Of a stretch of DNA of 45,693 nt, positions 2,589-41,029 are shown in pieces. This DNA comes from Candidatus Parcubacteria bacterium (lineage in GTDB: Bacteria; Patescibacteriota; Minisyncoccia; JAHIHE01; JAGLIN01): assembly GCA_023140775.1 (NCBI GenBank), contig JAGLLA010000009.1:1-45693 (forward strand), given 5' to 3'. Both the position numbers and the translations under genes were made by a program. Below the pieces are notes generated by a model. The model made no database searches and had not been told where the DNA came from. It saw only the letters and a program-made list of their open reading frames with translations. Every line of letters starts with the position of its first letter. Position 1 is the stretch's first letter.

Positions 2589-4895
2589 ATGGACATCATT
2601 CCAAATAAAAAATCAAATCTTCTGTTTCAGAGAGGTGACATGGCAAATAAAGGCGTTATTGACTTGCGTCAGTTTTCTGACGAGAAAAAAAGAAAAAATA
2701 TATTAGTAGAAAATAATAACAACACAGTTTATGAAATTATTCGAAAAGAAAGTATTACAGAGTCAAAAAAGATTGCCCAAAAAGCAGATATAAAGCAAGA
2801 TGGAGCTATTGAGAATTATGCTTTACGTGAAAAAAAATATAAAAAGAGTTATGTCTCAAATGTTGATGTAAAAAAAACAGAAAGTGGAATAAAGCCAAAA
2901 TTTCGTTTTTCTCTTATATTGAGTAGATCTTTTGCATCGTTCATGTTTGCATCTGTATTTGTCTCTTCTCTTGTATTTTCTCTTTCGTTCCTTCAAAGTC
3001 AATTTGAAGAAAAGGGTCGAATTATGGGGGTGGGTGTAGAGGCTTTTGATCACTTGAAACAAGCAGGACAGTCTGTTGTTAAGCATGATTTTAGCGAAAG
3101 TTTTGGTGAATTTCAAGATGCCAAACTTACCTTTTCTGAAGCAAAAAGACTAACCGATGAATTCGGATTTGGCTTGGCGGGAATGCTCAACGCTTTGCCA
3201 ATAGATACGCCACTTTCTACTGCCAGAAATCTTTCAGGAGCGGGAGAAAACATCGCATTTGCGGGAGAAAATATTGTAAAACTTTTTGATGAGATCTCGA
3301 GGCTTGATCCAGGAAATTTTTCTTCTTCATCAATTTCAGGATTTGGAACTTTGATAGATAAAATTGCGATCAGTCTAAGGCAAGCTGGAAATGACATAAA
3401 TTCGATAAATATAGATTATATACCAGCTGAAATGAGAAATAAAATAGAGCTAGCTCAAAAAGAGTTGCCTATACTGGCTGACAATCTGGAAAATTTATCT
3501 GAAGATTTCGAGACTCTAACTGAGATAATCGGAAACAAAAGGCCTCAGAAATATTTGTTATTATTTCAAAATAATAGCGAAATGAGAGCGACTGGAGGGT
3601 TTATTGGAAGTTATGGAATTTTGGATATGGAAAATGGAAAAGTAGAAAATATATTTATTGATGGTATATTCAATCCGGATGGACAGCTGAAAGAGAAGAT
3701 CGTCCCACCGATGCCAATTCAGAAAATTAGCGCGAACTGGAGCATGCACGACGCAAATTGGTTTGCTGATTTCCCAACTAGCGCTCAAAAGGTTGCTTCT
3801 TTCTATGAGAAAACTGGAGGACCTACAGTTGACGGAGTGATCTCTTTTACGCCAACTGTAATCGAAAAAATATTAAAGATCACAGGTCCAGTTCGTATGG
3901 ATGAATATGACATAATCATAAATGCCGAAAATTTCCTTTCGCTCTCCCAAATGCAAGTTGAAGAATTGTATGACAGGCAGGAGAATAGACCGAAGAAATT
4001 TCTAGCAGATTTGATGCCAGTGATATTTGAAAAAATGATAAACAGTGAAGAAATGAACAAGAAGGAAAAAATTCAAAGATATCTTGATTTTATCAATGTA
4101 GTTGAAGAAAGCTTGAAAGAAAAACACATTATGTTCTATCACAGAGATTCTGAGATTGAAAATATGATCATCAAGAGAGGTTGGGGTGGTCAGATGTTGA
4201 ATTCTAGCGGAAACTATTTGAGTGTCGTAAATAGCAATATAAATGGATATAAAACAGATGCTGTCGTTGAAGAAACGATCGATCATCTGACTGAAATTTT
4301 TGAAGATGGTTCAATTGTTAACACTGTCAAAGTCACCAGAGTGCACAAGGGCGGACAAAGTGAGTATGATTGGTATAATCGGGTTAATTCTGATTATTTG
4401 AGAGTGTATGTGCCACTTGGAAGCATTTTGCTGGAAGCTAGCGGTCATACAGCGCAAGAATATGAGCCTCCAATGAATTATGATAATTTTCGTATCGATG
4501 AAGATGTAAAAAATGTTGAAGACACGATCAAGATTGATCCTGATTCGGGAACTCAGATTTTTACAGAATCCGGGAAGACTGTTTTTGGAAATTGGGTTTA
4601 TGTGAGTCCGGGTGAAAAGGTTGAAGTGATCTATAAATATAAATTGCCCTATCAGATTGATTTTGATTCTTTTACAAAACCAGCCGATAGATATAGTTTA
4701 CTAATTCAGAAACAGTCTGGTAGTCGAGGAAGTAATTTTTCTGGTACAATTAAAGTTCCAGATAGATGGAAAATTCTTTGGGAGTCTGCTGATTTGATAA
4801 CTCAAGATCAAAAAGAAAGCTATTTTGAGAGCAAATTAACGACAGATAGGTTCTATGGAGTTGTTTTTTCAAGGGGGCTCTGGGGGGATGAATAG
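2589..4895 (+). CDS. DUF4012-like membrane-anchored extracytoplasmic protein (768 aa)
   Basis: One TM segment (FASFMFASVFVSSLVFSLSF) followed by a large domain with LLLFQNNSEMRATGGFIGSYG, the signature I associate with DUF4012. The true start may be the internal MANKG at 2640. Confidence 0.6.
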   Translation: MDIIPNKKSNLLFQRGDMANKGVIDLRQFSDEKKRKNILVENNNNTVYEIIRKESITESKKIAQKADIKQDGAIENYALREKKYKKSYVSNVDVKKTESGIKPKFRFSLILSRSFASFMFASVFVSSLVFSLSFLQSQFEEKGRIMGVGVEAFDHLKQAGQSVVKHDFSESFGEFQDAKLTFSEAKRLTDEFGFGLAGMLNALPIDTPLSTARNLSGAGENIAFAGENIVKLFDEISRLDPGNFSSSSISGFGTLIDKIAISLRQAGNDINSINIDYIPAEMRNKIELAQKELPILADNLENLSEDFETLTEIIGNKRPQKYLLLFQNNSEMRATGGFIGSYGILDMENGKVENIFIDGIFNPDGQLKEKIVPPMPIQKISANWSMHDANWFADFPTSAQKVASFYEKTGGPTVDGVISFTPTVIEKILKITGPVRMDEYDIIINAENFLSLSQMQVEELYDRQENRPKKFLADLMPVIFEKMINSEEMNKKEKIQRYLDFINVVEESLKEKHIMFYHRDSEIENMIIKRGWGGQMLNSSGNYLSVVNSNINGYKTDAVVEETIDHLTEIFEDGSIVNTVKVTRVHKGGQSEYDWYNRVNSDYLRVYVPLGSILLEASGHTAQEYEPPMNYDNFRIDEDVKNVEDTIKIDPDSGTQIFTESGKTVFGNWVYVSPGEKVEVIYKYKLPYQIDFDSFTKPADRYSLLIQKQSGSRGSNFSGTIKVPDRWKILWESADLITQDQKESYFESKLTTDRFYGVVFSRGLWGDE

Positions 4896-13862: not shown

Positions 13863-15194
13863 CTACCATAGCGTCGTGAACAGTGCTCCGTTGAGAATGA
13901 GAAATATAATTTGTAATATAATAGTCATAAAAAATATCGAGACATAAAAAATATTTTTGAATTTTTCGCTAGTGTTGTTTCTTTGAGCTATAATTTCCAC
14001 AACGCCGTAAAGTCCGATGGCTGCTAGTATGTTTAACATAATCAAAGCTGGAGTCATAAAGCGAGTGTCGCTATTGTCACTTATTGAGATAACCATAATA
14101 ATAAATAGTATTATGTAAGCGCTTATAATATTTATGTGTTTTGTGGGCAAATCTTTGAAAATATTATTATATTTTTTATTGTGCCTGATAAATAAAAATG
14201 ATAATAGTGATAAAAAGAATATATGAGAAAGGTATTGAGTTAGTATGGATAAGGATAAGCTGGCATATTTTAGCAAGCCTCCTGTGATTGGATTGTCAAT
14301 TGCTGGATTATTCGAAATAATGGCATTTGATCTAAAAACAAGATCATAGACCTCATTGGGATTGGTAATGATAGAAGGTAGGAAAATAATGTTTACTAAG
14401 GTAAATATAAAAATCCAGGTAAAATAATCCTTGAAGATCATTTTTAATTTTTCTTTGTTAAGGGGCCATCTGTAATAGATGAAAATCGAAAAATAAAATG
14501 GCAAGACAAACAGAGCTGATATTTTTGAAAGAACAGCCCAGGCACCAAAGACAGCAGAAAAAATCAAATATTTTTGATTTTCTCTTTTTGGGAGATAGAC
14601 AAGAATTGTCAGAAAGCTGAGCGTCATAAAAAAATTAAGCATTTTGTCAGAAGGTGTGGTCCAAAATTGCAAATATGTATTTGTGACAATAAACAGTAAT
14701 GAAAACGAAGCAATAATTCTGCCGAATCCAATTTTTTTCACGAGGTAATAAAAAGCAATAAAAAAAAGCACCAGTAACAGAAATAGTGGTGTATTAAAGG
14801 CAAAGCTTATTGTTTCATATGCTTTGTATGTTGCCATGTCGTGATTGTTGATGGCATAGTTGAAATCTAGCCCTTCGACTTCTTTGTCTGCAATTTTGAC
14901 CATCACATCATTAAAATCAAAATTGAAAAATTTCATCATAAAGCCCGTGAACCAATAGACGGTAATTCCTGGTTGAGCTGATTGGATCAGCCCCGAAAAG
15001 TCAAAAGCAAGAATTTTACTCCAAAAAATATCCGATCGATAATGCCAGAGCATTTCATCGAGATTTGGAAAGCTCCAAAAATTATTGATTTTATAAATGG
15101 CAGAGACGAGAAAGCCAGAAAAAATTATAAAAAGAACACAAACAAATTCTTCCAGTTTTTTGTAGTGTGATTTAAAATCAGATATTAAATTCAT
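13863..15194 (-). CDS. GT-C fold membrane glycosyltransferase (ArnT/PMT-like), paralog B
   Basis: NLDEMLWHYRS motif and polytopic topology. The start is reset to ATG at 15194 (MNLISDFK) because the ORF-track N-terminus is a read-through of tRNA-Leu. Confidence 0.55.
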   Translation of the reverse strand: MNLISDFKSHYKKLEEFVCVLFIIFSGFLVSAIYKINNFWSFPNLDEMLWHYRSDIFWSKILAFDFSGLIQSAQPGITVYWFTGFMMKFFNFDFNDVMVKIADKEVEGLDFNYAINNHDMATYKAYETISFAFNTPLFLLLVLFFIAFYYLVKKIGFGRIIASFSLLFIVTNTYLQFWTTPSDKMLNFFMTLSFLTILVYLPKRENQKYLIFSAVFGAWAVLSKISALFVLPFYFSIFIYYRWPLNKEKLKMIFKDYFTWIFIFTLVNIIFLPSIITNPNEVYDLVFRSNAIISNNPAIDNPITGGLLKYASLSLSILTQYLSHIFFLSLLSFLFIRHNKKYNNIFKDLPTKHINIISAYIILFIIMVISISDNSDTRFMTPALIMLNILAAIGLYGVVEIIAQRNNTSEKFKNIFYVSIFFMTIILQIIFLILNGALFTTLW

Positions 15195-15234
15195 AATACA
15201 TTCCCTTAGAATGAATTTATTTAACAAATTTGTG

Positions 15235-15314
15235 TGCAGGCGGTGGGAGTCGAACCCACAATCCGAGGAACATGGTCCTAAACCATGCGCGTATGCCAAT
15301 TCCGCCACGCCTGC
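15235..15314 (-). tRNA. tRNA-Leu (anticodon TAG), type II with a long variable arm; no encoded CCA
   Basis: Hand-folded cloverleaf: acceptor GCAGGCG/CGCCTGC, anticodon stem CATGG/CCATG with loop TTTAGGA, T arm GTGGG-TTCGACT-CCCAC. Confidence 0.9.
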
Positions 15315-15357
15315 AAAAAACAGCAATATACTAATAATATACTAATTTCTGAAAAAA

Positions 15358-20289: not shown

Positions 20290-20490
20290 GAGGTAGTAAA
20301 AGTCCGCTGATCAGATAATCTCAATGTGCCTCCTTTGAAGAAAATCTTCCCGAATGACAGTTTGTTCGTAATGGTTTCAGGGAGTTATTTTGTGTTTTAA
20401 AATAATTTATTTATCTTTTTAAAGATAAAAATTTTGCGTTAGATAAGTTAGATAATTATATATAATTTATATAAATTTAATAAAACATCT

Positions 20491-26881: not shown

Positions 26882-27189
26882 ATGTTTATTAATAAATTGT
26901 TTTTAAAAAATGACAACAAAAGTTATGTACGTTAATTGCTTACATTAGCCACGATACAGAGTATGCAATTTAAATATATATTATCATATCTAAGCAGTAT
27001 AGACAAGTAATACTTTTTTATATAAGCTTAATAAGCAAAATGATCTTTTACAATTGAATTGAGAAAGAGGATGTGAAGGGAAATGGAAAAAGATGAGATA
27101 GTCGAAGCTGAGTTAAAGTTTGAAAAATTGAAACAAAGAATGAAATCTAAATTAGAGAGATAGCAATAAACAAATAGGGAGAGATAAAG

Positions 27190-31579: not shown

Positions 31580-33184
31580 CTAATCCTCTGTGATGATCTC
31601 TGTTGTTTCAAATTTTGTCTTAAACAATCTTTTTTGAATTGAATTCCTGAAAACAATAAACTCTTCAATTTTCAAGATCCAGCTCAAGATGCAGTACAGG
31701 ACAAGTCCAACAATTCCAGCAATGAATCCTTGCAGGAAGATGCCAACTCCAGTTGAGGTATTGAGAAATGGTTCGACAAAATATAAAGTTTGATATGACA
31801 AGTAACCAGAGGCAAGCGCAGCTCCTGAAATTTTTAGGAGTGGTTTATAGATTCGATTATGACAGATAAAGTTTGTTTTTTTGTTGATAAAATAATAAAG
31901 CAAGAGGGCATTAATGATAGCGGAAATTGAAAAGGCTCCAATCAGTCCGATCAGTCCATATTGAGCAGATAGATAAAAGGCGAGAGCCACATTTACGATG
32001 ACACTGAAAAGCGAGGTTAGAAATGGAGTTTTGGCATCATGCAGAGCCCAAAAAGCTCGAGAAAACAAAGGAATAACTCCTTGCGCAAAAAGGCTGATTG
32101 AAAAAATAGCGACAGCATCAAGAAGCATGGTTGTTTCGTTCCAACCAATTTCTCCAGTTCCAAAGATTGTACGCACAATTTGAGCGCGTAAAATTAGAAG
32201 TAAGACGCTAACAGGAATAATAAAAAATAGAATCTGTTTAGTGGTAGTGGTGAGATTTCTAGCGAATTCTTTTTTGTTTTCACTGAGAGCCGAAAGTGTT
32301 GGAAATGAGGCCACAGCAAAAGATATTGCAAAAAGTCCCAATGGAAAACTTTGCAAGTTGTTGGCAAAGTTGAAAGCGCTTAAACTTCCTTCTTGTAGAG
32401 TTGAAGCGATGATGGTAATCACAATTAAATTCAGTTGAACTGTGATGAGAGTTAAGGTTCGCGGAATCATCATTTTGATTATTTTTCTGGCACCACTGTC
32501 TTTGAAGTCTAAGATAAATTGATAGCTAAATCCGAGTTTTTTGACAATTGGAACTTGGACTGCAAAATGAAAAAATGATCCCAAGACAACTCCCCAGGCC
32601 AGTCCATGAATTCCCCAAATTGGCGCAAAATAAAGAGCTCCAATGATAATCCCAATGTTGTACATGATAGGGGAGAGAGAATAGACAAAGAATCTGTGAT
32701 ACGATTGAAGAATTCCTCCAGTAATACTGCTTAAAAGGAGAAAAACAGGACTGAGAAACATAATACGTGTCAATTCGATGGTCAGGTCTTTTTTCTCAGG
32801 CGAAAAGCCAGGGGTTAGAAGAGAGACGATTGTTGGCGAAAATATAATTCCCAAAAGACACAAAAAAAGCAATGTGACCATCACCAAATTCAAGACAGCA
32901 TTAGCGGTTTTGAAAGCTTCCTTTTCCTTTTTTTGTGAGACTAGTTTGGCAAAGACTGGTATAAATCCCGCAGAAATTGCGCCAAGTACAACAATGTTGA
33001 AAATCAGATCTGGAACTCGAAATGAGGCAAAATAGATATCAAGTTCATTTCCAAGTCCGAATGTTCCTGCTAAGATTCGATCTCGGTATAAACCGAGAAA
33101 TTTACTGGCAAGCGAGGCAATTGCCAATATAAGGGCAGCAGATGTAATTGAGCTTATTTTTCCGTTTATCAGTCTTTTTATCAT
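31580..33184 (-). CDS. murJ: Lipid II flippase MurJ (MviN family)
   Basis: 534 aa with about 14 TM segments. N-terminal SKFLGLYRDRILAGTFGLGNELDIYFASFRVPDLIFNIVVLGAISAGFIPVF is the conserved MurJ N-terminus. Confidence 0.9.
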   Translation of the reverse strand: MIKRLINGKISSITSAALILAIASLASKFLGLYRDRILAGTFGLGNELDIYFASFRVPDLIFNIVVLGAISAGFIPVFAKLVSQKKEKEAFKTANAVLNLVMVTLLFLCLLGIIFSPTIVSLLTPGFSPEKKDLTIELTRIMFLSPVFLLLSSITGGILQSYHRFFVYSLSPIMYNIGIIIGALYFAPIWGIHGLAWGVVLGSFFHFAVQVPIVKKLGFSYQFILDFKDSGARKIIKMMIPRTLTLITVQLNLIVITIIASTLQEGSLSAFNFANNLQSFPLGLFAISFAVASFPTLSALSENKKEFARNLTTTTKQILFFIIPVSVLLLILRAQIVRTIFGTGEIGWNETTMLLDAVAIFSISLFAQGVIPLFSRAFWALHDAKTPFLTSLFSVIVNVALAFYLSAQYGLIGLIGAFSISAIINALLLYYFINKKTNFICHNRIYKPLLKISGAALASGYLSYQTLYFVEPFLNTSTGVGIFLQGFIAGIVGLVLYCILSWILKIEEFIVFRNSIQKRLFKTKFETTEIITED

Positions 33185-37582: not shown

Positions 37583-38176
37583 TTATACAACTAATGACAT
37601 AAAATAAGGAGTTATATATGCCTCAATTAGAGCCGCGAAGAATAAAAGGGGAATGAGGACAAATATATAAAATCTTAAAGCCTTGGTGAATTCCACAAGA
37701 AGATCCCCTTTTTTCCCAAATAATTTCCAAACTGTAATCTTTCCAATTTTTAGGCTTACTGCGGTAGCTAAAACGAGAACAGGAATTTCAATGATACCGT
37801 GAGGAGCAATACCAAGAATAAAAAATTCCCATGAGATCATACTAGACGAAACTTGAGCAAAAATACCGAGAACAAATCCATTTACAAGTATAAAGAACAA
37901 TGCAAAAAGTCCTGCAAAAAGTCCCAAGGGTAATAAGAGAAGTATCTTACTTGCATTATTCTCAAAGATAAACAAGAATATTCGATATGACGTCGTATTT
38001 TCTTCAATTGGAAAATAGGATTCAATATTTCTCAAAAATTTTGCTATCTCCTCAGGATTATTTTGAGCGAATACAAATCCAAAAACAATTGAAATCAAGA
38101 AAAGATAAGCAGAAAATACAATATAAGGCTTGATGCCGATTATATATTTTCTAATTTCTTTGATGTTCATAGGCAA
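37583..38176 (-). CDS. SpoIIM-like (stage II sporulation protein M family) membrane protein
   Basis: 197 aa, about 5 TM segments, with FENNASKILL ... VNGFVLG ... PHGIIEIPVL motifs typical of the family. Confidence 0.6.
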   Translation of the reverse strand: MPMNIKEIRKYIIGIKPYIVFSAYLFLISIVFGFVFAQNNPEEIAKFLRNIESYFPIEENTTSYRIFLFIFENNASKILLLLPLGLFAGLFALFFILVNGFVLGIFAQVSSSMISWEFFILGIAPHGIIEIPVLVLATAVSLKIGKITVWKLFGKKGDLLVEFTKALRFYIFVLIPLLFFAALIEAYITPYFMSLVV

Positions 38177-38222
38177 GATTAATTATACTTATATTATATC
38201 ACAAAATTATAATTATGCTATT

Positions 38223-38249
38223 AAAATAAAAACCCAAGTTTGACTTGGG
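38223..38249 (-). terminator. Rho-independent terminator (minus strand)
   Basis: The minus strand reads CCCAAGT-caa-ACTTGGG then tttttatttt. Confidence 0.75.
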
Positions 38250-38278
38250 AGAAATGCTTAATAATGTTTTTCATATTA

Positions 38279-38362
38279 TCAAACACTAAATTTCCAACCT
38301 ACGAACAAAATTCCGTGGCTAATAATAATGCTAATAATACTTTGCTGATTGTTTGAGTTCAT
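38279..38362 (-). CDS. Small ORF P1 (27 aa, MNSNNQQSIISIIISHGILFVGWKFSV), hydrophobic C-terminal half
   Basis: ATG to TGA, followed within 30 nt by an intrinsic terminator. It shares the N-terminal M-x3-N-x-Q-S pattern with P2 and P3. It has no Shine-Dalgarno site. Confidence 0.35.
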   Translation of the reverse strand: MNSNNQQSIISIIISHGILFVGWKFSV

Positions 38363-38411
38363 ATTTAAATGTTGATTATTACGAATAAAAGGAGGAATAA
38401 ATTTATTAATG

Positions 38412-38492
38412 TTATTTTTTATGCTCTATCAGTTTAGGATGTTTTAATAAACATATTTTAAATAACCTTTCAGTCAATTCTTGAAATGTCAT
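38412..38492 (-). CDS. Small ORF S1 (26 aa, MTFQELTERLFKICLLKHPKLIEHKK)
   Basis: Strong Shine-Dalgarno site: AGAGGAGGGcaacaATG. Confidence 0.45.
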   Translation of the reverse strand: MTFQELTERLFKICLLKHPKLIEHKK

Positions 38493-38532
38493 TGTTGCCC
38501 TCCTCTTGTTGTTTATATTATTTTAATATAAT

Positions 38533-38561
38533 TTGTGTATATAAATATTTTATATACACAA
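38533..38561. promoter_or_regulatory. Perfect 29-bp palindrome (13-bp arms, 3-nt centre), candidate operator
   Basis: TTGTGTATATAAA-tat-TTTATATACACAA lies about 40 nt upstream of the S1 start on the minus strand. Confidence 0.5.
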
Positions 38562-38599
38562 GCTATTTTAAAATAAACTTGTTTGAATAAATGGAGAAG

Positions 38600-38640
38600 G
38601 AGAAGCTATATTTTTTGCGTTGTTTCGCATTGAGCTTCTC
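38600..38640. other. Hairpin between small ORFs S2 and S1
   Basis: GAGAAGCT ... AGCTTCTC (8 bp) encloses GCG-ttgttt-CGC. Confidence 0.5.
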
Positions 38641-38672
38641 ACTTCAAGGAGAAAAATACTAAACCCATAAAA

Positions 38673-38795
38673 TCAACCTCTGCTACTATTATGACTTGCC
38701 TCAGAGTTAAGCACGCTCGACGCATTGATTACGTATTGCTCATCTGGATCTTTAAAATATGGTATTTTTCTAGCTCCTTCGATTTCACTACACAT
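38673..38795 (-). CDS. Small ORF S2 (40 aa, MCSEIEGARKIPYFKDPDEQYVINASSVLNSEASHNSSRG)
   Basis: Shine-Dalgarno site GAGGAGataaactATG. The protein is hydrophilic. It is antisense to the less plausible + ORF 38691..38933. Confidence 0.45.
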   Translation of the reverse strand: MCSEIEGARKIPYFKDPDEQYVINASSVLNSEASHNSSRG

Positions 38796-39040
38796 AGTTT
38801 ATCTCCTCTGTCTCTTTTCGTGTCTAATTTAAGAGACAATTCATGTTTACAAATATTTATAAACACAAATCGTCCTTTAAACTATTTCATTATCAATGAT
38901 CGTGAAGCAGATAGTGTTGCAAGAAGAGTATGAGTGATTTATATTATCACTTTTCTATTATCGAATCATACTCTCTTACAACTAGCCGTGGCTGACGACT
39001 TTATAGGACAGTGTCTAGCTTTATGATCTTTGACGGGATT

Positions 39041-39084
39041 GATATTGTCTTGATTACAGAAAATAGTTGAATCAAGACAATATC
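39041..39084. other. Perfect 15-bp-stem hairpin
   Basis: GATATTGTCTTGATT-acagaaaatagttg-AATCAAGACAATATC. Confidence 0.7.
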
Positions 39085-39186
39085 GCCAAACACCTTGAGT
39101 CCTACTGAAAATCATTTATATAACTTTATATAATAAACTTTCGGTAAGACTAAAATATTTATAATCAATAATCAATTTTTTATAAC

Positions 39187-39206
39187 AAAAAACCCACTTT
39201 CGTAGG
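39187..39206 (-). terminator. Rho-independent terminator of unit P2
   Basis: The minus strand reads CCTAC-gaaa-GTGGG then ttttttg. Confidence 0.65.
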
Positions 39207-39242
39207 TTACTTTTAGTTTCGTTTGTTTTCTTTCTCTTTTAA

Positions 39243-39350
39243 CTAAACCAAAAGCAACTTACTAATTAGTAGGTTTTTTTTCGCAATAATCACGGCACTA
39301 GTTGTCTGGAGTGAGGTATTTCCATTGGATTGTGAATTTGATGTTGTCAT
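39243..39350 (-). CDS. Small ORF P2 (35 aa, MTTSNSQSNGNTSLQTTSAVIIAKKNLLISKLLLV); alternatively part of a non-coding sRNA of about 175 nt
   Basis: It lies between a consensus promoter and a terminator. It aligns without gaps and in frame with P3 over 30 codons. It has no Shine-Dalgarno site. Confidence 0.35.
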   Translation of the reverse strand: MTTSNSQSNGNTSLQTTSAVIIAKKNLLISKLLLV

Positions 39351-39370
39351 ATGTTTTTTTAACTGGTTGC

Positions 39371-39398
39371 ATTATAGCACGCATTGAAATGTTGTCAA
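39371..39398 (-). promoter_or_regulatory. Consensus sigma70 promoter of unit P2
   Basis: The minus strand reads TTGACA-16 nt-TATAAT; the -10 element ends 20 nt upstream of the P2 ATG. Confidence 0.65.
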
Positions 39399-39889
39399 AT
39401 AATTAATTGTGGATAGATGACGGATACCAAATTAATTTATTATTTACTGTGAATTGTTGAATTAGAAGTGATGATTTTTAAATGTTAAGCATTCATTTAT
39501 GGCGACCATCACCGTAAATAATTTGCGTTAAGTTTTTTCTTGATAGTTAAATTTGTTTTTTGAAAAATTAGAGGGCATGGATAATTATCCTTAGACACAA
39601 ACTCCAGTGCGTTTTTGCTGCCCCCTAAATACGCGACGTTCTTCACCTTCACTTTCACTTTCATCCCTATCCTTACCTTTCTTTTTATTTCTTTTTTTCT
39701 CTTTCTCGCTTGGCATAATTTCACACACTCCCTTTTATTTTTGTTTCATTTGTTTATTGCATTTGAGCAATCAGTAATTTTTAAATTATTTTTAAAAACA
39801 ATTGATTGATAAAATGTCGTCTAAAAAACCTACCGCCTTAGTGATTTGCTTTTAATCTGGTTTGTTTCCTAAACAAAATTAAAAGTAAA

Positions 39890-39982
39890 TTACTTAGCTA
39901 GTAGGTCTAGTTTCACAATCACAAAAGATCCAGCTGTCTGGGATTTAATTGCTTGTGTCGATTGTGGATTTAATTTATTCAT
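39890..39982 (-). CDS. Small ORF P3 (30 aa, MNKLNPQSTQAIKSQTAGSFVIVKLDLLAK); alternatively part of a non-coding sRNA of about 175 nt
   Basis: A paralog of P2 at both nucleotide and peptide level, preceded by a consensus promoter. Its 3' region folds into long stems ending GGTAGGTTTTTT (T-run at 39823-39828). Confidence 0.35.
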   Translation of the reverse strand: MNKLNPQSTQAIKSQTAGSFVIVKLDLLAK

Positions 39983-40005
39983 ATGAATTTTCAAATTATA
40001 TCTAG

Positions 40006-40034
40006 ATAATAGCATCATTCAAAGTTACTGTCAA
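40006..40034 (-). promoter_or_regulatory. Near-consensus sigma70 promoter of unit P3
   Basis: The minus strand reads TTGACA-17 nt-TATTAT; the -10 element ends 23 nt upstream of the P3 ATG. Confidence 0.6.
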
Positions 40035-40101
40035 TGTTCCTAGAAATGTCAATTTCGCGCTTTTAAGCTAGCTTCTCGTGATAAGAAATGGTTGGGATAA
40101 T

Positions 40102-40129
40102 AAAAAGCTCCACTTGGACTAGTGGAGCT
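40102..40129 (-). terminator. Rho-independent terminator ending the response-regulator operon
   Basis: The minus strand reads AGCTCCACT-agtcca-AGTGGAGCT then ttttta, 37 nt downstream of the stop at 40166. Confidence 0.8.
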
Positions 40130-40165
40130 CTAAGCGATAAGAATTAACGTGTTGGAAGTGAGAAC

Positions 40166-41029
40166 TTATTTTTTCTTTTTTTTCTTTTCAACAATCTCTC
40201 TCACTTTTTCAATAATTTCTCCAACGGTGAAATGAGCTTTAATTATATAATCTTCTGCTCCTAGGGCAAATCCTTTTTCAATTTCGCTTGTTTGACCTAG
40301 GTTAGTAAGCATTATGACAGGAATTGATGCCTTTTCTGGAATTTCTTTGATTTTTTTCAACACTTCAAATCCATCCATTTTAGGCATAATAATGTCAAGT
40401 AATATTATTTCAGGGTCTTCTTCTTTGATCTTGGCAAGCGCTTCAACACCATCACAGGCCGAGCTAACATCAAATCCTTCTTTTTTAAATTTAGTTTCAC
40501 ATATGTCTCTTAAAAAATCATCATCTTCTGCAAGAATAACTTTCAGTCCACCCTTTTTATTCTCGTCAACTGAAATTTCTTCTTCCTCCTCTTCAATTTC
40601 CGTCTTGTCATTCTTTTCAATTACAGGCTCCCTTTTAGCTATTTTCTGAGTATTGTTGAAAAAATTAGAAACTTTTTCTAAAACTTCTGTGGGATCAAAA
40701 TCTGCTTTAATTAAATAATCAACTATATCAAATTTTTTGATCCTTTCAATTTCTACTGGTTCTCCCGAATTGGAGATAATGATCACCGGAATAGATGAAA
40801 ACTTATCATTCGCTCTCAGGTCATGCAGAACCTCAAATCCGTCTTTTATCGGCATTACTATGTCTAGTAAGATTAAATCCGGCATAAAACCGTCTTTTAT
40901 AAGATTTATTCCTTCTTCACCGTTATTGGCAACTAAAATTTCGTATCCGTTTGCTTCTAATTTCTTTTTCAAGAGACTCTGAAGAATTTCCTCGTCCTCC
41001 ATAATTATAATTTTTTTTGTCATAATCAA
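40166..41029 (-). CDS. Response regulator with two tandem receiver (REC) domains and no output domain
   Basis: Two CheY-like modules (DLILLDIVMPIKDGFEV and EIILLDIIMPKMDGFEV) joined by an acidic linker. Confidence 0.85.
   Translation of the reverse strand: MIMTKKIIIMEDEEILQSLLKKKLEANGYEILVANNGEEGINLIKDGFMPDLILLDIVMPIKDGFEVLHDLRANDKFSSIPVIIISNSGEPVEIERIKKFDIVDYLIKADFDPTEVLEKVSNFFNNTQKIAKREPVIEKNDKTEIEEEEEEISVDENKKGGLKVILAEDDDFLRDICETKFKKEGFDVSSACDGVEALAKIKEEDPEIILLDIIMPKMDGFEVLKKIKEIPEKASIPVIMLTNLGQTSEIEKGFALGAEDYIIKAHFTVGEIIEKVREIVEKKKKKK

Follow-up and report, generated by a model that had tools for sequence, protein, structure and literature searches.

A conserved array of small expression modules upstream of a SpoIIM-family gene in Patescibacteria

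Bacteria of the Candidate Phyla Radiation (CPR) have tiny genomes and are not grown alone, and to our knowledge their gene regulation is almost unstudied; a literature search on CPR small RNAs or attenuators returned nothing. In a genome this small, a 2-kb stretch that is poor in genes yet conserved is a strong hint of function, and raises the question of what such a stretch is for. One lies at positions 38177-40165 of a 45,693-nucleotide (nt) contig (JAGLLA010000009.1, assembly GCA_023140775.1; the whole stretch is called the window below), between a SpoIIM-family gene and the gene of a double-receiver response regulator. The contig derives from a Pacebacteria-like metagenome-assembled genome of the Patescibacteria (CPR): the named organisms among the closest SpoIIM-family proteins are 'Candidatus Pacebacteria', and an exact-protein look-up found identical DNA (99.99-100% identity) in three assemblies, GCA_030636505.1 among them. 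An initial annotation of the region, made from its letters alone, had proposed a cluster of small RNAs and/or small peptides. We put at about one in two the probability of a more specific account, in which these 2 kb are a vertically inherited array of small, RNA-controlled expression modules that stands before the SpoIIM gene and includes a leader-peptide attenuator.

Conservation of the array and its link to SpoIIM

An ordered array lies upstream of a SpoIIM-family gene in 12 other distinct loci (L024, L059, L062, L064, L066, L068, L070, L072, L083 and L084, plus L049 and L053, which are seen from the array's far side). These were gathered with a pattern derived from the window's two copies of a repeated module, the A-unit, from the neighbourhoods of SpoIIM homologues, and by a metagenome scan with the pattern of the leader open reading frame (ORF) P1, which added L083 and L084. 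Whole or in part, the same order recurs: A-unit, hairpins and inverted repeats (E, J, G, H), the small ORFs S2 and S1, P1, a 'cargo' slot, and SpoIIM (coordinates in Table 1). Units, promoters, terminators, several ORFs and hairpins are all conserved, with compensatory changes, and the idea of a small-RNA and/or small-peptide cluster holds to that extent.

Could these signals instead be a decaying remnant, or the product of chance in AT-rich DNA? At 28-30% GC, chance promoter-like matches are favoured; the spacer at ~39400-39560 has no match in any relative, and the window's P1 has lost its antiterminator. The relatives, however, do not present the picture of decay without conserved ORFs or structures that the initial annotation had itself raised, but keep modules ordered alike in the 12 other loci, with compensatory changes. 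The region holds 26 promoter-like sites against 15.9 +/- 4.3 in shuffled sequences and 5 terminator-like sites against 1.3 +/- 1.0, and its RNA folding, scored against shuffled sequence, gives z = -4.7 for P3 and -3.9 for P2 (the two A-units), -5.6 for 38470-38680, and as low as -8.7 for 38780-39165. A tblastn search for the remains of a degraded gene with LeuA-like and cargo proteins was negative. For the conserved modules the remnant account is refuted, and we leave it next to no probability overall; the array is conserved, and functional rather than junk.

Wherever the identity of SpoIIM to the window's protein is 49% or more, the array recurs, whole or in part; at identities of 47% (L071) and 35% (L073) it is absent. 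Whereas the SpoIIM-family gene is its invariant partner, the response regulator adjoins it only in the window and in L064, where the response regulator gene and the P3 unit align with 73% identity over 1252 nt; the place upstream of the array is taken in L062 by a LeuA-like gene, in L068 by FtsH, and in L049 and L053 by an unrelated membrane protein. Because adjacency to the response regulator is limited to these two loci, the comparison indicates that the array belongs with, and is anchored to, the SpoIIM gene rather than the kinase/receiver operon. The SpoIIM gene is preceded by the motif TTGTG[AG]TATAAT in L064, L066 and L084 as well.

This arrangement bears directly on a second idea of the first reading, according to which the adjacent kinase and receivers would serve a locus for a peptide pheromone or a bacteriocin. 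Several small peptides do lie directly downstream of a two-component operon (past the response regulator come a second receiver, a histidine kinase, and FIST and HAMP proteins), the P3 unit remains beside the response regulator in L064, and the A peptides contain a variable patch. In most relatives, however, the array adjoins other genes. None of the 10 flanking genes scanned (33.4-38.2 and 40.2-45.5 kb) is an exporter, a processing or C39 peptidase, an immunity gene or a modification enzyme, in agreement with the earlier remark that no processing or export genes are visible; a MurJ/MatE-family flippase-like gene at 31580-33184 was seen through precomputed Pfam hits only. The listed peptides, inspected by eye, show neither a double-glycine leader nor a Cys-rich core, and they match no family. 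Given that the array belongs with the SpoIIM gene, we consider such a locus highly improbable.

Searching the peptides against protein-family databases did not place them: scans of all micro-ORFs with Pfam, NCBIfam and PADLOC gave no match. In Rfam, searched with the window and 7 related loci at gathering and permissive thresholds, only tRNAs reach threshold, and the weak matches reflect generic hairpin similarity to miRNA models. The A-unit, P1, the E-J-G hairpins and the micro-ORFs K, S2 and S1 are new families, parts of which resemble known kinds of element. A scan of viral contigs gave chance matches only, and the array is not phage-borne. A metagenome scan with the A-unit pattern gave no match, though the Joint Genome Institute contig L068 fits that pattern, the collection being incomplete for this clade.

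The arrays of relatives carry further elements. tRNA genes are embedded in those of L059 (3214-3287) and L062 (1547-1621). The tRNA-Val of L059 begins 5 nt past the U-run of an A-unit, with no room for a promoter of its own, a position that implies either RNA processing or transcription through the terminator of the A-unit. An additional, highly conserved RNA-like unit of ~230 nt (GCUCAUUUGCUU...GAAUACUUUGAAUC...GGGAAU...CCGCCCCUUUCUCAUCCUCC) occurs in L049 (~1-240), L059 (~2600-2900), L062 (~1690-1800), L070 (~870-1080) and L072 (~1690-1900), in several of them after an H-type hairpin; it is absent from the window and matches nothing in Rfam. In L064 the array holds two copies of a ~60-nt repeat (..AAATTATATTTAT.ATTTCTC.TCGTTAT.ACTCCCA.GAAAT.ACAAAT..) at ~3940-4010 and ~4790-4860, one of them at the site of a degenerated P1.

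The paralogous A-units

P3 and P2 had been described as separate units, and their signals are there, including the consensus promoters, both of which score highly on the minus strand and carry a TG extension; what had been missed is that the two are paralogues, 76% identical from promoter to terminator. Each A-unit spans ~170 nt and consists of an extended -10 promoter, an AU-rich leader of ~20 nt, an ORF of 30 or 35 codons, an imperfect hairpin of ~80 nt and a U-run. Of 58 matches to the pattern drawn from both copies most were due to chance, but four other CPR genomes gave true homologues, and nhmmer brought the total to 13 distinct units with strong scores (L064, like the window, has two), with a weaker fourteenth in L084; the P2 subtype is also found in L064b and L066. 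Across the alignments the -35 GACA and the extended -10 TG (in 11 aligned units), the ATG, TCACAAT, CCAGAC, CCTACTA and the U-run are invariant, and the stop codon of the ORF always falls inside the 5' arm of the terminator hairpin.

The consensus fold comprises a 5' hairpin (H1) that encloses a 4-base-pair (bp) hairpin (H2), followed by the long imperfect 3' hairpin. In the family alignment 97% of cells are paired and compensatory change affects 4 pairs in 10 cells, a number matched by 0/500 shuffles; slid controls gave none. All of this covariation falls in the inner 3' hairpin, which alone is proven.

The ORF within the unit is kept open: its frame is uninterrupted in 13/13 copies, the other two frames holding 35 and 8 stops, and the only two indels in its alignment are in-frame 3-nt deletions. 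Its ratio of nonsynonymous to synonymous change (pN/pS) is nevertheless 1.15 overall, 3.2 in five close P3-type copies and 0.87 in three P2-type copies, against 0.26 for the SpoIIM gene, and variability is equal at all three codon positions. A frameshift lengthens and changes the C-terminus of the P2 subtype and the L024 product is truncated, with the nucleotide sequence retained in both. From these patterns, ribosomes probably traverse the ORF, and in our reading selection on the A-units preserves the RNA, as nucleotides and structure, and not the peptide. In the proposed comparison of selection on the micro-ORFs with compensatory base change, the A-unit hairpin covaries, the A-unit ORF shows no constraint on its amino acids, and S1 shows moderate purifying selection (pN/pS 0.40 over its first 14 codons).

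The same data bear on whether the A-unit ORFs are conventional micro-proteins, for instance partners of the SpoIIM family, with the hairpin merely a terminator. The invariant ATG, the open frame, the in-frame indels, a start context typical of this genome and the constant linkage to the SpoIIM gene would all fit; a pN/pS of ~1 to 3, equal variability across codon positions, and frameshifts that alter or truncate the product while the nucleotides are retained do not, and we find this account improbable. A concatenated A-peptide query gave no scoring match in a protein database, from which peptides this short are apparently missing.

The start of the A-unit ORF has no Shine-Dalgarno (SD) sequence. 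The window as a whole is poor in them: 33 of its 38 long ORFs lack an SD-like tetramer in the 30 nt upstream and three have a well-placed one, several have TATAAT inside those 30 nt, and short AU-rich leaders seem the rule. Because most long ORFs here do without an SD, the A and P1 ORFs, which have none either, appear to start as genes in this genome normally do, and for the A-unit the missing SD is, on this comparison, no argument against translation. By the same token it is K, S2, S1 and the cargo ORFs, with GGAGG in front of them, that stand out as exceptions, SD-like motifs being rare in this genome.

Several familiar identities for the A-unit were set aside. As a classical attenuator it lacks a discernible antiterminator, both alternative 3' folds keeping a stem before the U-run, and we therefore treat it as an autonomous unit. 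Its invariant stems and variable linkers are the reverse of the usual pattern of a riboswitch aptamer. A disguised 6S, SRP, RNase P or transfer-messenger RNA has no support from Rfam or ARAGORN, and the architecture is wrong.

Parallels are found among dual-function small RNAs that encode micro-proteins, such as RNAIII/hld, SR1/SR1P and SgrS/SgrT (reviewed in PMC12310071). Like these, the A-units have a predicted promoter and terminator of their own, a length of ~170 nt, a conserved structure and a short ORF kept open; unlike them, they show no purifying selection on the predicted peptide, place the stop always in the 5' arm of the terminator, and occur as two paralogues in fixed synteny.

On the plus strand, a promoter-like site inside E (CTGAAA-18-TATAAT, 39105-39134) points back into the P2 unit, whose hairpin, with the A-run before it, would also end a plus-strand transcript; an antisense RNA of ~140 nt is possible.

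Type I toxin-antitoxin pairs with 3'-overlapping RNAs, such as txpA/RatA and bsrG/SR4 of B. subtilis, offer a further comparison. The A-units, and perhaps P1, would on this account each combine a small, partly hydrophobic peptide and the highly structured mRNA that encodes it with a convergent, 3'-overlapping antisense RNA that restrains it. The A-units share with the B. subtilis pairs a small ORF, a structured mRNA and a long, stable 3' hairpin, and the P2 subtype adds a terminator that works on both strands by virtue of its A-run, with the opposite-strand site, a perfect TATAAT, just downstream. Two copies per genome, peptides with many Val, Ile and Leu residues towards the C-terminus, in the second half (FVIVKISLLIK; VIIVKKSLLISKLLLV), the quick build-up of amino-acid changes in them, and similar reverse-strand sites seen by eye in E of L053, L049 and L024 are also in keeping with such a system. 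The peptides, however, are not transmembrane, their longest uncharged hydrophobic runs being ~5-8 residues, and the antisense promoter is not present throughout, as E follows neither the P3-type units nor, in L064 and L066, the P2-type units. The A-units are inherited vertically and keep strict synteny between genomes with no more than 50-70% identity in SpoIIM, whereas the distribution of toxin-antitoxin modules is usually patchy; the viral-contig scan gave no copies and PADLOC no match. We regard a toxin-antitoxin role as quite unlikely.

The P1 leader, hairpins and micro-ORFs

P1 is full length in eight other loci (L024, L059, L062, L066, L068, L072, L083, L084). Most of the nine full-length copies read ..NIIISIIIS[HR]G.L..R.V, with six Ile in eight consecutive codons; the window has SIISIIIS, with 5 Ile (five of seven), and L024 is weaker, with 4. 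In the relatives the ORF enters the 5' arm of a 26-bp antiterminator helix, with its stop codon at the helix top, and the 3' arm of that helix overlaps by 5-6 nt (alignment columns 115-120) the 5' arm of a terminator equivalent to that of the window, so that the RNA there can adopt one of the two structures or the other. The helix, which was folded in L024, L059, L062, L066 and L068, aligned in L072 and traced by eye in L083 and L084, is 92.7% paired, and 4 of its pairs show compensatory change. In the minimum-energy fold of L068 the Ile-codon segment pairs with the 5' arm, which gives the layout of a classical four-segment attenuator.

Leader-peptide attenuators are known from amino-acid operons, among them ilvGMEDA/ilvBN, thr and trp of E. 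coli. P1 is like them in its short ORF, where codons of a single amino acid (Ile) come in a run, in the entry of that ORF into a long helix that shares 5-6 nt with an intrinsic terminator, in the alternative pairing of the Ile-codon segment, and, in one relative, in the enzyme gene that follows: the gene after P1 in L062/63 is 2-isopropylmalate-synthase-like (LeuA-like), an enzyme gene of branched-chain amino-acid synthesis. It differs from them in being found in CPR bacteria, in a cargo made up mostly of unrelated small ORFs, in the absence of an SD before the leader ORF (normal for this genome) and of a match to any Rfam leader family, and in a window copy that has no antiterminator. Genes for the metabolism or transport of isoleucine do not as a rule follow P1: L062/63 alone has this LeuA-like gene, and the cargo ORFs of 52-113 aa have no family match. 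In the window nothing lies between the P1 terminator and the SpoIIM gene's own promoter. In L062/L063 two LeuA-like genes (1-796 and 3022-4533) flank the array, which is out of the ordinary in bacteria generally described as having no amino-acid biosynthesis.

Conservation also runs on past the P2 terminator, between P2 and S2. Hairpin E is conserved with compensatory changes in five relatives (L024, L049, L053, L062, L070). Helix J encloses a perfect 15-bp hairpin, found where it had been reported (39041-39055 / 39070-39084), together with an invariant single-stranded AAUCCCGUCA (39031-39040), and its apical loop in relatives is CCUCC-like. Equivalents of hairpin G occur in L024, L049, L053, L059, L066 and L070. 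Module H is 79-87% identical in L024, L064 and L066, where changes in its arms are mirrored, and related copies exist in L059, L062 and L070; it would be an RNA hairpin or, alternatively, an extended -10 promoter combined with an operator. The palindrome upstream of S1, likewise located, has a core of 13-bp arms around a 3-nt centre; L024, L064 and L066 keep it, and changes in one arm are mirrored in the other.

The last alternative arises from these palindromes. E, H and the S1 palindrome would act as DNA, as operators on extended -10 promoters, and the region would be a series of separately repressed micro-ORF promoters. This reading is suggested by half-sites (TTGTGTTTATAA and TTGTGTATATAA) that resemble the SpoIIM promoter TTGTGATATAAT; E reads TTGAAA-N17-TATAAa on both strands in several genomes, S2 and S1 otherwise have no recognisable promoter, and a co-evolving dimeric repressor would also produce mirrored arm changes. 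Against it, no DNA-binding regulator is encoded beside the array in any locus, the paired arms reach well past the promoter-like hexamers, and J, G, the A-unit hairpin and the P1 antiterminator helix covary and are not promoter-like. We consider it unlikely as an account of the region. One-mismatch near-matches to TTGTGTTTAWAA occur at other intergenic spots of the window, 20390-20401 (+) and 26897-26908 (+); if these are no more than ordinary extended -10 promoters, as they may be, that would speak for reading H and the S1 palindrome as promoters too.

Four small ORFs belong to the array besides those of the A-units and P1. What had been noted as a mere purine-rich stretch is a conserved, highly charged ORF, K, with relatives of 45 aa (L064/65) and 41 aa (L066/67) at the same place, directly after a P3-type unit; an upstream sequence and the C-terminal motif [KR]R.[FW].G are common to them. 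At the end of K, the last codons contain the 5' arm of a terminator-like hairpin, an arrangement repeated in L064 (GAGGGGA...CCTCCCCTC + T6) and L066 (GGGGA...TCTCCCC + T7), and a profile search with K returned only the two relatives already known. The deposited contig calls a 51-aa product here in a different frame (L001 8507-8662 = window 39664-39509, minus) and a 49-aa ORF that spans the 15-bp hairpin; the two calls appear to be annotation errors. S2 has SD-led relatives of 34 and 38 aa in L024 and L064 with a common ...SE..H...R motif. The middle ORF ('SPS.F') recurs in L024 and L064, and the hairpin that it overlaps stays paired in L024 through a G-C to A-U change. S1 keeps the motif M[TS]F.EL..L..I in L024 and L064, with a longer SD-led version in L066, and its SD pairs with the upstream CU-rich tract in the predicted fold.

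Hairpins that sequester an SD and C/U-rich regulatory loops are known from RNA thermometers and from the UCCC loops of staphylococcal small RNAs. The S2 and S1 starts and hairpin G resemble such elements in that GGAG-type purine strands are predicted to pair with CUCC/UCCC, covariation being partial, and the invariant, unpaired AAUCCCGUCA is a further point of likeness, with no claim to family membership.

The other signals reported for the region were recovered at or near the positions first given, among them the five micro-ORFs of P3, P2, S2, S1 and P1 and the minus-strand terminators (40131-40104, 39208-39191, 38249-38233). No ORF exceeds 80 aa, as the ORF listing bears out. The three longest (80, 71 and 64 aa), earlier suspected to be spurious, are indeed not supported: Pfam gives no meaningful match to any of them, the syntenic stretch of L024 holds no counterpart of at least 50 aa to the 80-aa plus-strand ORF, and the 71-aa ORF overlaps K in a different frame. 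Elsewhere in the window, a mechanical 487-aa ORF with a TTG start (13863-15326, minus) overlies a tRNA-Leu (15234-15314, minus), so its true start must lie further downstream; and an assignment of a replication origin or terminus from GC skew was dropped, as the skew merely tracks gene orientation here.

Table 1. Features of the region 38177-40165 and its bordering genes, in window coordinates
Feature	Position	Strand	Remarks
Double-receiver response regulator gene	40166-41029	minus	borders 38177-40165 on one side
Intrinsic terminator of the response-regulator operon	40104..40131	minus	11-bp stem, then T-run
P3 promoter, TTGACA-17-TGcTATTAT	40006..40034	minus	score 11/12; TG extension
P3 ORF, 30 codons (MNKLNPQSTQAIKSQTAGSFVIVKLDLLAK)	39890..39982	minus	ATG invariant; holds helices H1 and H2
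P3 long 3' hairpin (H3) and U-run	39823..39906	minus	z = -4.7; ORF stop codon in its 5' arm
K, 41-aa highly charged ORF	39591..39716	minus	SD-like AAGGGAG at 39728-39734
K terminator-like hairpin (AGGGGGCA...TGCCCTCT + T5)	39562..39626	minus	read from sequence
P2 promoter, TTGACA-16-TGcTATAAT	39371..39398	minus	score 12/12; TG extension; conserved in orthologues
P2 ORF, 35 codons	39243..39350	minus	1-nt deletion relative to P3 type shifts stop deeper into hairpin
P2 long 3' hairpin and U-run	39185..39274	minus	preceding A-run is also a U-run on the opposite strand
E, hairpin/palindrome with 13-bp stem	39098..39151	minus	also reads as TTGAAA-N17-TATAAa promoter on either strand
Helix J, 39083-39093 paired with 38988-38998	38988..39093	minus	encloses perfect 15-bp hairpin (39041-39084)
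Hairpin G, purine-rich 5' arm GUAAGAGAGUAUGA, pyrimidine-rich 3' arm UCAUACUCUUCUUGC	38909..38979	minus	
Module H, inverted repeat around TTGTGTTTATAAATATTTGTAAAC (TTGTGTTTATAAAT)	38826..38885	minus	followed by small hairpin and S2 SD
S2, 40-aa ORF	38673..38795	minus	SD GAGGAG
Middle ORF, 20 codons	38568..38630	minus	overlaps hairpin GAGAAGCU...AGCUUCUC and CU-rich tract
S1-upstream palindrome	38518..38576	minus	core 38533-38561, TTGTGTATATAAA-ATA-TTTATATACACAA
S1, 26-aa ORF	38412..38492	minus	SD AGAGGAGGG; relatives in L024, L064, L066
P1, 27-codon Ile-rich leader ORF (MNSNNQQSIISIIISHGILFVGWKFSV)	38279..38362	minus	
P1 terminator, CCCAAGU-CAA-ACUUGGG + U-run	38228..38249	minus	stem 38249-38233
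SpoIIM gene's own extended -10 promoter (TGTGATATAAT; also TTGTGnTATAAT, TTGTGATATAAT)	38193..38203	minus	read from sequence
SpoIIM-family gene	37583-38170	minus	borders 38177-40165 on the other side

How the array may work

In the account that we favour, the array would operate mainly at the level of RNA. Each A-unit would yield an RNA of ~170 nt, and the A-units would be abundant small RNAs that ribosomes read through, riboregulators of a dual-function or leader-like kind. K, S2 and S1 would be real micro-proteins, and their translation may be gated by RNA structure, since their SDs lie in or beside conserved hairpins and CU-rich partners. P1 would be a ribosome-mediated attenuator that senses isoleucyl-tRNA and controls read-through into the variable cargo slot before the SpoIIM gene. 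In the window itself, given the empty cargo slot and the degenerate antiterminator, P1 would now terminate transcription constitutively and so keep the array insulated from the promoter of SpoIIM.

Several observations weigh against this account. All transcript boundaries are predicted from sequence. In the A-unit, H1, H2 and the outer stem are invariant, which makes covariation uninformative for them, and the open frame could in part be a by-product of the conserved nucleotides. A role of the A-unit as a 'leader' is left unexplained, there being no antiterminator found and both folds being terminating ones, and for a role as a dual-function small RNA no target or seed has been identified, no target search having been made. 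The window's own P1 is not predicted to fold an antiterminator, L070 and L053 retain the P1 ORF without its hairpins, and what follows P1 elsewhere is mostly an unrelated SD-led ORF of 52-113 aa, or SpoIIM with a promoter of its own. E, H and the S1 palindrome, finally, can equally be read as DNA palindromes, each a promoter with its operator.

A bolder version of the RNA-level account, which we advance tentatively and hold to be possible rather than probable, sees the array as a clade-specific translation-sensing region. The A-units and P1 would be a previously undescribed set of leaders, read by ribosomes, that monitor the supply of charged tRNA (Ile, perhaps branched-chain more generally) for which the auxotrophic cell depends on its host, and gate the micro-proteins and the cargo gene next to SpoIIM.

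The array, which is previously undescribed, adds several families of RNA and micro-ORF that are absent from Rfam and Pfam (the A-unit, P1, E-J-G, K, S2 and S1), of a kind that gene callers miss or, as with K, read in the wrong frame. CPR bacteria are generally without amino-acid biosynthesis. Should P1 prove to work as an isoleucine attenuator, attenuation of the classical, ribosome-mediated type would survive in organisms presumed not to make amino acids, where it would probably serve as a nutrient sensor.

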